A program made the translations under genes and the position numbers. This document shows positions 59,683 to 64,000 of a DNA stretch of 64,000 nt, in pieces (positions within the stretch are counted from its first letter, which is position 1; every line of letters begins with the position of its first letter). This DNA comes from Akkermansia sp. (GTDB taxonomy: Bacteria; Verrucomicrobiota; Verrucomicrobiia; Verrucomicrobiales; Akkermansiaceae): assembly GCA_017398355.1 (NCBI GenBank), contig JAFQGD010000002.1:6926-70925 (forward strand). Direction: 5' to 3'. The notes beneath the pieces are model-generated. The model was not told the origin of the DNA. It saw only the letters and a program-made list of their open reading frames with translations, and searched no databases.

Positions 59683-61028
59683 TGCAGGCCCCCTCTTTCC
59701 CCATGATTGAAGAAAAGACCATTGCAGCCGTAGCCACTCCGCCGGGTAGCGGTGCTATTGCTGTGGTACGCATGAGCGGGCCACAGGCGCATGCCATTGC
59801 GGCTACATGCTGCGGCCGCAGCTTGGAGGCTCGCCGCGCTACCTTGGTGCGCTTGCGCAATCGAGATGGGGCACCAATCGATGAAGCGGTGGCTACATTC
59901 TTTGCCGCACCGGCTAGTTATACCGGCGAAGATGTGGTGGAAATATCCTGCCACGGTGGCATGCTGGTGACTCGCCGTGTGCTGGAGTGTCTCTTGCAGG
60001 CCGGGGCGCAACCTGCCGAACCGGGAGAATTTTCCCGCCGGGCATTTGCTAATGGTAAGTTGGATTTGACCCAAGCAGAAGCGGTGATGGATATCATCTC
60101 TGCCGGGAGCGATTTGGCCCTTCGTGCGGCCCAAAACCAGCTCCAAGGTGCCATCAGCTCCCGTGTGCAAGCGGCGGCAGACAGACTCATCTCTACCGCC
60201 GCCCATCTGGAGGCCTATATTGATTTCCCGGAGGAAGAAATCTCCCCCGATACCACAGAGCAGCTTGCAGCAGCTATGCTTGGCGTCCGGCAGGATTTGC
60301 AACAGCTCCTCGACACGGCCGATGAGGGAAGACTTCTTCGTGAAGGAGTGCGCACAGCCATTGTCGGCGCTCCCAATGTGGGCAAATCCAGCTTGCTTAA
60401 TATGCTCCTTGGTTATGAACGCGCCATTGTGAGCAATGTGGCAGGTACTACCCGTGATACGATTGAAGAATGCGTGAGCCTTGCCGGCTTGCGCCTGCGC
60501 CTCACCGATACGGCCGGCTTGCATGAAAGTGATGATGCCATTGAGCGCGCCGGTATGGAGCGCAGCCGTCGCGCCGGGGCAGAGGCTGATTTGGTGCTGG
60601 AGGTAGCAGACCTCACCCAGCCCCCGCCTGCTCCCTTGCCTTTGCCGCCGGGCAGCATGCGCCTGCTCGTGCTCAACAAAGCGGATTTGCCGCCCCACCC
60701 TGCCTGGGAAGGGCAGGAGGGTATCCGCATTTCTTGCCATACCGGGGCCGGCCGCAAGGAGTTGGAACAGGCCATTGCCGCGCTCTTCCTGCGTCATGAT
60801 ACCACCGCCGCCGATTTTGCTGCCATCAACACCCGCCACCGCTTCGCTCTACAACAAGCATTGCAGGCCCTGATGCAAGCGCATGCCTCCCTCCTTGCAG
60901 GGGATTCTCCCGAACTTACGGATGTAGACCTCCGCGCTGCTCTGGATGCCCTCGGTTCTATCATTGGCCGCATTGATACCGAGGATATCCTCACTCGCGT
61001 CTTTGCCACGTTCTGCCTCGGTAAATAA
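59682..61028 (+). CDS. mnmE: tRNA modification GTPase
   Basis: IAAVATPPG, EISCHGG, GEFSRRAFANGKLDLTQAE, GAPNVGKSSL, AGTTRD, DTAG and FCLGK end. Start is 59682 (TAATG overlap) or 59703. Confidence 0.96.
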   Translation: MQAPSFPMIEEKTIAAVATPPGSGAIAVVRMSGPQAHAIAATCCGRSLEARRATLVRLRNRDGAPIDEAVATFFAAPASYTGEDVVEISCHGGMLVTRRVLECLLQAGAQPAEPGEFSRRAFANGKLDLTQAEAVMDIISAGSDLALRAAQNQLQGAISSRVQAAADRLISTAAHLEAYIDFPEEEISPDTTEQLAAAMLGVRQDLQQLLDTADEGRLLREGVRTAIVGAPNVGKSSLLNMLLGYERAIVSNVAGTTRDTIEECVSLAGLRLRLTDTAGLHESDDAIERAGMERSRRAGAEADLVLEVADLTQPPPAPLPLPPGSMRLLVLNKADLPPHPAWEGQEGIRISCHTGAGRKELEQAIAALFLRHDTTAADFAAINTRHRFALQQALQALMQAHASLLAGDSPELTDVDLRAALDALGSIIGRIDTEDILTRVFATFCLGK

Positions 61029-61164
61029 CCCCCCACATCGTAAATCCTACATTCCAAAGGGCTTGTTTGAAAGAAAATTTGCAGTTTAAGTGGAGTTTTG
61101 CTTGACGTGAAGCCAAATTCGTGTAGAATAGCGCTCCGCATAAATCTTAACCCCCAATAAAATT

Positions 61165-61443
61165 ATGTCCAGAATCTGCAATATTACGTTTGCTATGCCG
61201 CACAAGGGCCGTCGCATTCATCGCTCCGGTCTTGCCAAGAAAAAGGGTGGTATCGGTCGTCACGTCACGAAAGTTGTGAACCGCACAGTTTATCCGAACC
61301 TGCAGGAAAAGCGTATCTGGGTGCCTGAGCTCAATGGTGGCAAGGGTGGCTACATCCGCATGAAGCTCTCCTGCAAGGCTCTCCGTACGATTTCCAAGAA
61401 CGGCGCTTTCAATACGCTCAAGAAAGCCGGTATCCTTTATTGA
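61165..61443 (+). CDS. rpmB: 50S ribosomal protein L28
   Basis: MSRIC...VVNRTVYPNLQEKRIW; promoter TTGACG-16-TAGAAT at 61102-61129. Confidence 0.93.
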   Translation: MSRICNITFAMPHKGRRIHRSGLAKKKGGIGRHVTKVVNRTVYPNLQEKRIWVPELNGGKGGYIRMKLSCKALRTISKNGAFNTLKKAGILY

Positions 61444-61595
61444 TTCCGGCTACTGCGTTCAGTTTTTTTTGAACGCTGCGGCAAGTTCAGGTGTCTCCCT
61501 TTCAAGACTACAACAGGATTTGCTGCTGAACTGCTCCGAAACGGACACGGATGTATGCAGGATTCCTCCTGTTAATCACATCACAGTTTACGAAA

Positions 61596-61823
61596 ATGAC
61601 ATCCCCCCAGACCAAAATCGCGCTTCGTATCAACGACGATAACCTCAATCACCACCTGTGGAATAACCGCGGTGTGTGGTGGTGCCACGTTACCGTTCAT
61701 AAGCCGGATGCTACGGCTGAACGCCTTCGTTTCTCCCTGCGTACGCGGGATATTAAGAAGGCTCGCACGCTTCGCGACCGTATTTTTGCGGACATCCAGC
61801 GTCACTTCGGTATAGCTGCCTGA
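61596..61823 (+). CDS. Small basic hypothetical protein (75 aa), possibly nucleic-acid binding
   Basis: NLNHHLWNNRGVWWCHVTVH...ERLRFSLRTRDIKKARTLRD resembles three-stranded arm-type DNA-binding folds; it has its own terminator. Confidence 0.7.
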   Translation: MTSPQTKIALRINDDNLNHHLWNNRGVWWCHVTVHKPDATAERLRFSLRTRDIKKARTLRDRIFADIQRHFGIAA

Positions 61824-61860
61824 TGTGTGGCCCGCAATGGGCTCTGCTCAGATTGTTTTC

Positions 61861-61893
61861 AAAACCGCATCGGGTTTGTCCCGGTGCGGTTTT
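61861..61893 (+). terminator. Intrinsic terminator
   Basis: AAAACCGCATCGGG / CCCGGTGCGGTTTT, a 14-bp stem with one G-U pair. Confidence 0.75.
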
Positions 61894-62044
61894 GCTGTCT
61901 CGTATGGGCATTTTGGGATGATGGCACACAAAGTCACCCTCAGGACTGATATTGTGCTTGCATTTAGGGGACAAGGTGATAGATTGAATTCAGGCACACC
62001 CGTTTAGCACAGGTGCGCTCCGCAACGAACAGACTTATACAACA

Positions 62045-63022
62045 ATGGATATTCTTCACGACAAGGACGCCGATGTGAGCGTTCTGAATGGCAAGACCGT
62101 GGCTGTGATTGGCTACGGTGCTCAGGGTCGCGCCCAGGCTCTTTGCATGCGCGACAGTGGCGTGCATGTCATCATCGGTCTGCGCCCCGGCAAGAGCTGG
62201 GATGCAGCTGTGCAGGATGGCTTTGAAGTCATGCCCGTAGATGAAGCAGCCGCCAAGGCCGACATCATCCACATCCTCCTGCCCGATGAAAAGCACGGCG
62301 AGGTATACACCAACCAGATTAAGCCCGGCTTGAAGCCCGGCAAGACACTGTGCTGCTCCCACGGTTTTGCATACGTGTTCAAGACCATTGAGCCCCCGGC
62401 AGATGTGGATGTCATCATGGTGGCTCCCAAGGGCCCGGGCACGGAAGTGCGCCGTGTGTTCGAGGAAGGCTTTGGCTGCCCCGGTCTCATTGCCGTATTC
62501 CAGAATCCGACCGGCAAGGCTCGCGAGGTAGCACTTGCCATGGCCAAGGCAGAGGGTCTTACCCGCGGTGGCGTGTTGGAATGCACCATGCAGCAGGAGA
62601 CCTACGAAGATCTCTTTGGCGAGCAGAACGTGCTTTGCGGTGGTCTCGTGGACCTGATGAAGTATGGTTTCGAGACACTGATTGAAGCCGGCTACCCCGC
62701 CGAGATGGCCTACTTCGAATGCGTACACGAAGCCAAGCTCATCGTGGACATCATCTACAACAAGGGTATCCAGGCCATGAACGCCGTTATCTCCAACACC
62801 GCAGAGTTCGGTGAATACTACAACGGCCCGCAGATTCTTGGTCCGGAAGTGAAGGAGAAGATGAAGGAATCCCTCAAGCGCATCGAAAGTGGCGAGTTCG
62901 CCCGCGTGTGGCTGGCAGAAGCCGCCGCCGGTGCTCCCAATCTGCTTGCCAAGCGTGCTGCTTTGGCAGAGCACCCCGTGGAAATCGTGGGCAGCAAGAT
63001 TCGCGAGCTTTTCGAGCGTTAA
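62045..63022 (+). CDS. ilvC: Ketol-acid reductoisomerase (class I)
   Basis: IGYGAQGRAQA, LLPDE, SHGF, VAPKGPG, DLFGEQNVLCGG, AYFECVHE and SNTAEFG. Confidence 0.97.
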   Translation: MDILHDKDADVSVLNGKTVAVIGYGAQGRAQALCMRDSGVHVIIGLRPGKSWDAAVQDGFEVMPVDEAAAKADIIHILLPDEKHGEVYTNQIKPGLKPGKTLCCSHGFAYVFKTIEPPADVDVIMVAPKGPGTEVRRVFEEGFGCPGLIAVFQNPTGKAREVALAMAKAEGLTRGGVLECTMQQETYEDLFGEQNVLCGGLVDLMKYGFETLIEAGYPAEMAYFECVHEAKLIVDIIYNKGIQAMNAVISNTAEFGEYYNGPQILGPEVKEKMKESLKRIESGEFARVWLAEAAAGAPNLLAKRAALAEHPVEIVGSKIRELFER

Positions 63023-63057
63023 TTCACGCTTCATATTTACACAGCTTATTGCAAAAC

Positions 63058-63086
63058 AAAGGCGCAGGAGAAATCCTGCGCCTTTC
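63058..63086. terminator. Bidirectional terminator
   Basis: AAAGGCGCAGGA-GAAA-TCCTGCGCCTTT between convergent genes. Confidence 0.75.
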
Positions 63087-63110
63087 GTATGCGTCAATGT
63101 GGAAGAGATA

Positions 63111-64000
63111 TCAGCCGCGGTTAAATAAGCGTGTTTGCTCCGGATCCGGCATGATTTCTACGAGGGCAAAATCATCTTCTTGCAGGTCGTAGACAGCATC
63201 AAAATCTGCGGCGCAGTAGATGGGTATGTATTTGGCATTCCAGAGGCGTGCCAAATCCTTGAGGTTGCAGGCGGGGATTTGCGCTTCGGGGGTGTTGACT
63301 GTATCAGCTGCCAGCACCGCGACTACACGCAAGCCGGGTTCAAGCTGGGGCAGGAAGGTGGAGGCGGCACAATCGCGCATCAGAGCCACATCACCTGCAA
63401 GGCAACAGGCACTTTGCTTGGCGGCAGAGTAGCCGAGGAAAGCGGATACGGTGCCATCCGTACTGTGCATATTGATTCCGCGCACCATGCCGAATTCCCG
63501 CTCTGATTGAGCGTATTTACCCCACAGAGAGGATACGCGGGTGCCACTCAGGCACACTTCATCGCAAATGACGGCGTAATGCGAGAAGGCGCGTACCAAA
63601 GCGGCCTCACTCTCGGGGTAGGAAAGGAGCAATTCCTCAATGCGTGCAGCGCGGCGCCGGCTCAGGCTGAGTAGCCCTGTGGGGTCATGGCGGCGGGGAA
63701 TATCCCCCAACGCTTGCATGATTTGCTCGATATCGCCCTCAAACACATGGCTTTGGCGGCGCAAGCCGGCAAAGCCGGTGCGGGTTACAGAGTATACCTC
63801 CACCTTGGGCATATCTTCCAGTGCTTGCCAGAAAGGCCCGGTGGGCACTTCGCCAAAGCGCAAGACGATGGGGGGAGGGTTGTCCAGCAAGAGGGCATCG
63901 GCATCGGCCAGCACATACTGGTGCATTTGCTCGCGCATGTTGCTGGCGGGCTCTGCCAACATGGGCACACGCAGCAAATCTGCCAGCCATGCTACGGCGT
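63111..64000 (-). CDS. MenD-like thiamine-diphosphate enzyme, C-terminal part (gene starts beyond the window), divergent
   Basis: VPMLAEPASNMR, VLRFGEVPT, RGINMHSTDGTVSAFLG and CLAGDVALMRD align by eye with MenD central and PP-domain motifs. The frame is open to the window end. Confidence 0.55.
   Translation of the reverse strand, partial: AVAWLADLLRVPMLAEPASNMREQMHQYVLADADALLLDNPPPIVLRFGEVPTGPFWQALEDMPKVEVYSVTRTGFAGLRRQSHVFEGDIEQIMQALGDIPRRHDPTGLLSLSRRRAARIEELLLSYPESEAALVRAFSHYAVICDEVCLSGTRVSSLWGKYAQSEREFGMVRGINMHSTDGTVSAFLGYSAAKQSACCLAGDVALMRDCAASTFLPQLEPGLRVVAVLAADTVNTPEAQIPACNLKDLARLWNAKYIPIYCAADFDAVYDLQEDDFALVEIMPDPEQTRLFNRG

Follow-up and report, generated by a model that had tools for sequence, protein, structure and literature searches.

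The 155-nt spacer on the + strand between rpmB and a gene encoding a 75-aa protein (ORF75), in the 64-kb stretch of Akkermansia DNA analysed here (the window), carries a promoter-like motif that is kept genus-wide and an RNA hairpin, P1, that is supported by covariation and holds the -10-like box of that motif in its apical part. To judge from the comparison of homologous leaders, the region is very probably not a ligand-sensing riboswitch, and it stands where other Verrucomicrobiota carry a SAM-I/IV riboswitch. We tentatively propose, with somewhat less than even confidence, that it is a lineage-specific control region of ORF75, in which an ECF-type promoter would be superimposed on an RNA hairpin that insulates read-through transcripts. 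The features of the locus are listed below.

61102-61129 (+): sigma-70-type promoter-like site of rpmB, TTGACG-16-TAGAAT, from a consensus scan (10/12 matches)
61165-61443 (+): rpmB, ribosomal protein L28 (Pfam Ribosomal_L28, E 2.1e-10)
61463-61470 and 61469-61474 (+): T-run and -35-like TTGAAC, respectively, the latter invariant in alignment A1 as TTGAACG
61478-61526 (+): hairpin P1, with 5′ arm 61478-61488 and 3′ arm 61516-61526 (MFE fold)
61491-61496 with 61505-61511 (+): inner stem of P1 (MFE fold)
61492-61497 (+): -10-like TGTCTC in the apical part of P1, with GTC invariant and a 17-nt spacer from TTGAAC
61535-61552 (+): P2 (TCCG-AAA-CGGA, 61535-61545) and an ACGGA block, corresponding to GUUC-NGAAAC-GAAC-GCGGA of relatives
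61550-61582 (+): P3, with outer GAUGU/ACAUC and inner GCAGGA/UCCUGU (MFE fold, species-variable)
61596-61823 (+): ORF75, predicted 75-aa stand-alone integrase-arm-type (DUF6538-like) protein
61865-61893 (+): canonical intrinsic terminator 3′ of ORF75, CCGCATCGGG/CCCGGTGCGG then TTTT, read from the sequence

Organization of the rpmB-ORF75 locus

The gene order in the window is mnmE, rpmB, ORF75, ilvC. All 24 same-genus genomes of the first sample, and the 31 drawn later, have the rpmB-ORF75 pair, with mnmE and ilvC as its flanks in the two closest relatives only; at the loci examined from outside the genus, rpmB was adjacent to ORF75 in none. Forty-eight distinct same-genus spacers between the two genes, 108-207 nt long, were compared.

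No canonical terminator could be read in the window sequence between rpmB and ORF75. The T-run was considered as an rpmB terminator and ruled out, since no consistent hairpin precedes it in this genus and the energies of the 45-nt segments are ordinary. Sister Akkermansiaceae genera have canonical terminators directly after rpmB and this genus has no such consistent hairpin, so that rpmB and ORF75 are probably co-transcribed to some degree here.

Hairpin P1 and its comparative support

The folding energy predicted for 61476-61600 is -37.6 kcal/mol, with a z-score of -2.79 relative to dinucleotide-shuffled sequences. In the window, P1 pairs 61478-61488 with 61516-61526 in the register GCGGCAAGTTC/GGATTTGCTGC, its arms being GCGGCAAGUUC/GGAUUUGCUGC, and the corresponding arms in other species are GCGACAC/GUGUCGC, GGAGCCCCUGC/GCAGGUGCUCC and GUUGUUACACC/GGUGAGCAAC; one variant elsewhere is an 18-bp stem (AAAAAGGCGCC...). 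Despite such very different arms, a P1-type hairpin is predicted in approximately 43 of the 48 genus sequences, with a mean z of -2.2 (dinucleotide shuffles). Throughout the genus, its 5′ arm begins 4-8 nt 3′ of GAAC and thus inside the promoter-like spacer, the GTCT box is found in its apical part, and its 3′ arm follows 25-45 nt further on.

Covariation was scored in alignment A3, which comprises 25 distinct sequences of one subclade aligned with MAFFT and left unfitted. Changes on both sides are found in 10 of the 12 P1 pairs, for example C17-G69 to U-A in the close relative G009 and G19-C67 to A-U in G018, and the covariation score is 0.25 against 0.15 ± 0.016 for shuffled alignments (0/500). 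When the partner was slid by 1-3 columns, the score was at most 0.115, and the share of P1 cells able to pair fell from 78% to approximately 40%. After fitting to the model, all 12 pairs show double changes and the score rises to 0.345, against 0.142 shuffled (0/500) and at most 0.12 in slid controls. A covariance model built from A3 has a single match in the 64-kb window, at 61463-61553; it matches nearly all the genus loci searched, weakly in divergent clades, and has no match in the tested loci of other Akkermansiaceae genera.

An earlier note on this DNA had described a riboswitch-like leader upstream of a small protein, possibly part of a lineage-specific RNA-protein module, and had proposed aligning the upstream regions of homologues as a check, with the caution that short stems can arise by chance. 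A structured RNA element specific to this lineage is borne out by that alignment, and the objection is contradicted by the covariation of P1 above both shuffle and slide controls. Chance complementarity in an ordinary, functionless spacer is accordingly an exceedingly improbable account of the region: short stems do arise easily, and a long-range pairing that the note had proposed is not conserved, but 48 distinct sequences share the invariant motif and its fixed spacing, and the covariance model matches the window once, at this site, and none of the tested loci in other Akkermansiaceae genera.

When the P1 segments were folded on both strands, the sense strand was the more stable in 36 of 48 (Wilcoxon p = 1e-4), and the folds contained 87 G-U pairs on the sense strand against 46 on the antisense strand. 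The sense-strand stability and the excess of G-U pairs indicate that selection acts on P1 as sense-strand RNA or, less likely, as non-template single-stranded DNA.

P1 is not followed by a U-tract in the window, where UGAACUGC comes next, or in most species. It therefore lacks the immediate U-tract which, with a G+C-rich hairpin, makes an intrinsic terminator; canonical hairpin-plus-U terminators are used elsewhere in the window.

Two other pairings were considered and set aside. Pairing of the P1 3′ arm (GCCGC) with a downstream GCGG is ruled out, as the compensatory changes track the 5′ arm and break the alternative. The helix P0 from RNAalifold, which joins GAAC (5′) with GUUC, is unsupported because all its bases are invariant; its flanking pair 13/77 varies between G-U, G-G and G-C, and a T-to-C change in the window itself makes the helix weaker.

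The segments on which the earlier note based its fold are all present in the sequence: AGTTCAG (61484-61490) and CTGAACT (61526-61532) with the enclosed GTCT/AGAC, the TCCG-AAA-CGGA hairpin (61535-61545), and AACAGGA (61512-61518), TCCTGTT (61567-61573) and CAGGA (61558-61562). The note was right in seeing a long hairpin in the first pair, but not in its register, which competes with P1 and is available only in the window and its two closest relatives. The pairing of AACAGGA with TCCTGTT is not kept: in G022, which is 90% identical, the two segments read ATGAGGA and TTCCTGTT with no compensation, and other species have no equivalent. Neither the mutually exclusive pairings that the note had built on it nor the supposed pseudoknot finds support in the comparison.

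A bipartite promoter-like motif overlapping P1

Nearly all of the 48 distinct genus regions retain the T-run and GAAC. In its genus-wide form, the motif consists of six to nine T, GAAC, and then TC(T) 19 nt (rarely 18 nt) later, and this GAAC-N19(18)-TC spacing does not change from clade to clade, whatever the sequence of the hairpin. The three bases G53 T54 C55 are invariant in alignment A1.

A -35 AAC and a -10 GTC are hallmarks of ECF sigma promoters. The window sequence TTGAAC-17-TGTCTC (61469-61497) shows the -35 AAC, the -10 GTC/CGT and the fixed 16-17 nt spacing of this type, and several further sites in the same genome are aimed at genes, as would be expected of a regulon. The T-run-GAAC...GTCT arrangement reads as an ECF-type promoter with its -10 box within the P1 loop, which would place the start of transcription near 61503-61506.

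The extended motif occurs at four sites in total in the genome of the window, one of which is the ORF75 site. The other three, of the form T-run-TGAAC-N17/18-GTCTAC (C36:39652 (+), C58:56225 (-) and C67:29656 (+), all outside the window), are intergenic and aimed at ORF starts 8-46 nt away; a comparable hairpin is found at none of them. The ORFs behind them encode a 343-aa protein, a 149-aa protein and a 198-aa protein after hemA, the first two of which have signal-peptide-like N-termini, and Pfam gave no informative family for any of the three. These genes are candidate members of the regulon of an alternative sigma factor. In 31 genomes of the genus, the strict motif pattern has 81 matches against 15 for the reversed control, an enrichment of approximately 5-fold. 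The hemA-side site, marked by GAACAAA, seems to be shared by 10 or more species of the genus with varying spacers, as judged from the matched strings alone. Besides RpoD, the genome has genes for four small sigma70_r2 proteins; upstream of one of the four genes is TTTTTTGAAAC-N17-GTTTA, which is similar but not identical to the motif.

A. muciniphila ordinarily uses promoters of the -35/TATAAT type, and 10% of the transcripts have no leader (PMC4782308), which fits the very short motif-to-ORF distances at the other sites.

In general terms, ECF (group 4) promoters such as those of sigma-E, sigma-W and EcfG combine an 'AAC' -35 with a 'CGT/GTC' -10. The window resembles them in its T-rich tract, its TGAAC, the 17-nt spacer to xGTCTx and the strictness of the spacing, as well as in the recurrence of the motif before several genes in a genome with four small sigma genes. 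It differs from them in that its -10 box is enclosed by a conserved hairpin made up of the spacer and the early transcribed region; to our knowledge, this is not a feature of any known ECF promoter.

A related site outside the window, C59:45389 (-), reads TTATTGAAC-N19-GTCTG and lies 29 nt before a 97-aa ORF (FLGWRVSIQRCGRIITRYF...YGSEEES), the product of which looks like a small AP2/arm-type DNA-binding protein.

ORF75 paralogues and the ownership of the module

Where ORF75 is duplicated, the module follows the gene. In G095, a strong terminator precedes the second ORF75 copy, which retains T8-GAAC-N18-GTCT together with a GUCU-looped hairpin, and the rpmB-adjacent copy has no T-run. In G170, the second copy is found 2 kb from the first and keeps T7-GAAC and a hairpin. 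Retention at these copies marks the motif-plus-hairpin module as that of ORF75, not of rpmB.

The same copies bear on the possibility that P1 serves rpmB, either as a U-tract-less or factor-dependent terminator or as a 3′ stabilising or processing hairpin that happens to overlap the ORF75 promoter. P1 lies 35 nt after the rpmB stop codon, a canonical terminator is missing between the two genes, unlike in the sister genera, and hairpins between cistrons are well known to stabilise the segment upstream of them. We nevertheless regard this role as quite unlikely, given that hairpin and motif persist at ORF75 paralogues away from rpmB, in one case directly behind a strong terminator, that the rpmB-adjacent copy in G095 is the one without a T-run, and that a U-tract is missing in most species, when canonical hairpin-plus-U terminators are used elsewhere in the window.

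Tandem or 2-kb-apart ORF75 paralogues are found at G095:C9:26683-27419, G170:C1:354235-356808 and G166:C66:41273-41794. More distant extra copies, with 31-48% identity, occur in other genomes, for example G041 and G103.

The ORF75 protein

ORF75 shares 88-100% amino-acid identity across the first 20 same-genus loci. It matches DUF6538, an N-terminal domain of integrases, at E 7.6e-5 and 22.7 bits, short of the curated cut-off of 27; 52 of 56 family members match DUF6538 at E up to 0.01, all below the cut-off. The AlphaFold2 model (pLDDT 77) comprises three strands and a helix (E21-24, E27-35, E41-47 and H53-71), and thus has a three-stranded sheet on a C-terminal helix, as lambda Int 1-64 does. 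VIA-align matches were 3jtz (Z 4.5, rmsd 2.2 A over 50 residues), 1z1b (Z 4.3) and 2wcc (Z 3.8); scores of 3.8-4.5 are weak and are tied with those of unrelated folds, with AP2 domains and the arm-type domains of the HPI and lambda integrases among the best. A Foldseek search of the model against the PDB gave nothing significant, and a sequence search for solved structures gave only spurious matches to designed WD-repeat proteins. Database homologues are all labelled 'hypothetical', the named ones being from Rubritalea and Akkermansiaceae, and the family occurs in 70 of 151 genomes within the order; of 251 genomes sampled evenly across the phylum, 42 have it. The family is thus widespread in Verrucomicrobiota, and by its predicted fold ORF75 is an integrase-arm-type (DUF6538-like) domain that stands alone, in keeping with the earlier note's impression of a nucleic-acid-binding type of protein.

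ORF75 is like the arm-type domains of tyrosine integrases (lambda Int N-domain, HPI integrase, DUF6538) in fold and weakly in sequence. It is unlike the tyrosine integrases in having no recombinase domain and in being a vertically conserved chromosomal gene across the phylum; its ties are to SAM riboswitches and metK, whereas integrase arm domains are tied to mobile elements.

In the main rival to the promoter-plus-hairpin reading, P1 would be a protein-binding operator RNA: ORF75 or another factor would recognise the flank UUUUGAAC and the apical GUCU, resulting in autoregulation of translation or stability. A variable, covarying stem with an invariant flank and loop at fixed spacing is typical of such operators, the structure is on the sense strand, the module accompanies ORF75 paralogues, and the predicted fold of ORF75 is of a nucleic-acid-binding kind. 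The operator is still fairly unlikely. The motif is enriched genome-wide and occurs before other genes without the hairpin, for which a DNA promoter is the better fit; arm-type and AP2-like domains are known as binders of double-stranded DNA; and the GGA motifs of the leader would not be CsrA sites in a genome without a CsrA gene.

SAM-I/IV riboswitches upstream of ORF75 homologues

Outside Akkermansiaceae, a SAM-I/IV-type match is found just upstream of ORF75 homologues at 24 of 31 loci, sub-gathering scores included. Among the first 17 loci, five matches score above the Rfam gathering score and 11 others fall short of it (E up to 0.1), including one that matched as SAM-I; a further 14 loci across the class and phylum have eight SAM-I/IV matches, one above the gathering score. 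Directly after the ORF75 homologue, metK is found in four loci (L067, L068, L070 and L071), and two other genera of Akkermansiaceae have a Cys/Met PLP-enzyme gene before ORF75. This context makes the ORF75 family, whose protein is uncharacterised, a candidate regulator of methionine/SAM.

The homologues at loci L055-L071 and L098-L109, of approximately 75-95 aa, are a recurrent SAM-I/IV target across the phylum. In L058, L062, L066 and similar leaders, CCUGAUGC is the exact reverse complement of the aptamer 5′ strand GCAUCAGG, and, as read by eye, it can alternatively pair with ACUGCAUCA, which abuts the AUG. A three-way competition of this kind would be a plausible translational expression platform. 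Several of the SAM-I/IV-led ORF75 loci also carry a terminator.

The window leader is like the SAM-I/IV leaders (RF01725) in its position 5′ of the same gene family, and both end in a GAUG...CAUC-type hairpin near an AU-rich start region. The SAM-I/IV core (GGCAACC, AAGGUGCC and P1 GCAUC/GAUG), however, is absent from the window, and the promoter-like pair is conserved in its stead. The earlier note had recognised no Rfam family, and a permissive cmscan of positions 60000-64000 of the window likewise gave no match in the region at E up to 10, SAM-I/IV included. No SAM-I/IV match (RF01725) was found in the whole genome at E up to 1, SAM-I gave noise matches elsewhere only, and Rfam scans of the genome's own metK and of the other motif loci gave nothing. 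As a positive control, the same covariance-model tool detects the aptamer before ORF75 homologues in other families. The note's suggestion of SAM as a ligand has an indirect basis: homologues elsewhere do sit behind SAM-I/IV riboswitches, but the aptamer is missing here.

The aptamer of a riboswitch is expected to be conserved wherever the regulated gene is conserved. Across the genus, the leaders share P1 and the promoter-like boxes and no aptamer core, and no junction or pseudoknot with conserved unpaired bases is backed by covariation. A new class of ligand-sensing riboswitch (for SAM, SAH or methionine, for example) in place of the SAM-I/IV aptamer would be attractive, in that such aptamers precede homologous genes in other families, P1, P2 and GCGGA are conserved structured elements in a leader with a marked fold z-score, and a genome with neither SAM-I/IV nor SAM-I might have another sensor. 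It is very unlikely, though, as a promoter would explain the invariant bases, the A. muciniphila-like clade has ~150-nt UTRs that bear no relation to the window's, and the P2/GCGGA element is single-copy and is absent from the genome's own metK, which has no leader.

A broader proposal, that a new regulatory RNA (P1, plus P2/GCGGA) replaced the SAM-I/IV riboswitch and binds ORF75 or senses a methionine/SAM-related signal, is also unlikely. In a still more exotic variant of it, the hairpin would expose the -10 box in single-stranded form, as a hairpin promoter. The best reading of the leaders is that the promoter-plus-hairpin region replaced the SAM-I/IV riboswitch in this lineage.

The stop codon of an ORF of 308 aa or more, which has no Pfam match, lies 14 nt before the start of the genome's own metK (C17:35000-37300, L072). 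The arrangement suggests that metK is in an operon with an unknown protein.

The remainder of the leader

The sequence of P2 and GCGGA is conserved in one large subclade only (A3, 25 distinct sequences), where the P2 cells are 95% paired and essentially invariant, and show no covariation. Two substitutions in the window move the P2 register to UCCG/CGGA and retain the hairpin. For the TCCG/CGGA hairpin of the earlier note, conservation thus holds, in the form GUUC/GAAC and within one subclade, but covariation does not. No further copies of the P2/GCGGA element were found in the genome. The closest relatives, G009 and G022, have the same P3 or almost the same, and other species have unrelated hairpins in its place; in the A. 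muciniphila-like clade, the UTR of approximately 150 nt is unrelated in sequence, and the protein is approximately 86% identical.

A CsrA/RsmA-regulated leader was considered and rejected: GGA motifs are present, but CsrA (PF02599) was not found in the genome, which is 95% complete.

Proposed control of ORF75

In the promoter-plus-hairpin reading, one stretch of sequence would carry two signals. The DNA signal would be an alternative-sigma (ECF-type) promoter composed of the T-run, TTGAAC, the 17-nt spacer and TGTCTC; starting near 61503-61506 in the P1 loop, its transcript would have a 5′ UTR of approximately 92 nt with P2 and P3. The RNA signal would be P1, which would form only on transcripts entering from upstream, because its 5′ arm lies 5′ of the inferred start. 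As there is no terminator between the two genes, the entering transcripts would be read-through from rpmB. P1 would mark or insulate this RNA through processing, decay or lowered translation, which we infer to be its most economical role, and ORF75 would then owe most of its output to its own promoter.

Several observations sit uneasily with this account. If the start lies within the P1 loop, the transcript of the ORF75 promoter cannot itself form P1, so that the benefit must come from read-through, which is unusual, and the conservation of P2 and GCGGA is left unexplained. A fixed flank-to-loop distance on a covarying stem is equally expected of a protein-binding RNA hairpin. When long and short transcripts were folded in silico, the start codon was more open in the short form in 35 of 46 sequences; it was unchanged in the window and opposite in one clade, and the change in accessibility is thus inconsistent.

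The arrangement may be compared with the E. coli rpsU-dnaG-rpoD type of operon, in which a ribosomal-protein gene is likewise co-oriented with a regulatory gene and the genes downstream of it are partly insulated. Read-through, an internal stress-type promoter (putative here) and a structured intercistronic element are common to both. The E. coli operon has a true terminator (T1) and a sigma-32 promoter within a coding region, whereas the window has a U-less hairpin that overlaps the promoter.

Akkermansia is among the most studied beneficial gut genera, and its gene regulation is almost unmapped. The locus offers a strongly covarying, unannotated RNA structure, a candidate alternative-sigma motif that would define a small genus-wide regulon, and the unusual placement of a promoter spacer and -10 box within a conserved RNA hairpin. 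The ORF75 family, as a main SAM-I/IV riboswitch target across Verrucomicrobiota and often followed by metK, is a candidate for the phylum's missing methionine/SAM regulator. If the hairpin is regulatory, it would exemplify how a lineage rewires a riboswitch-controlled gene after loss of the riboswitch; if it were instead a new ORF75-binding or SAM-sensing RNA, it would represent a lineage-specific RNA-protein module central to SAM homeostasis in a medically important gut genus.

Within the leader, the words GAAC, GUUC or CGNAC recur three or four times, at 61469-61475 (the -35 box), 61527-61531 (following P1) and 61535-61546 (the two arms of P2). They are possible half-sites for a DNA-binding protein such as ORF75.
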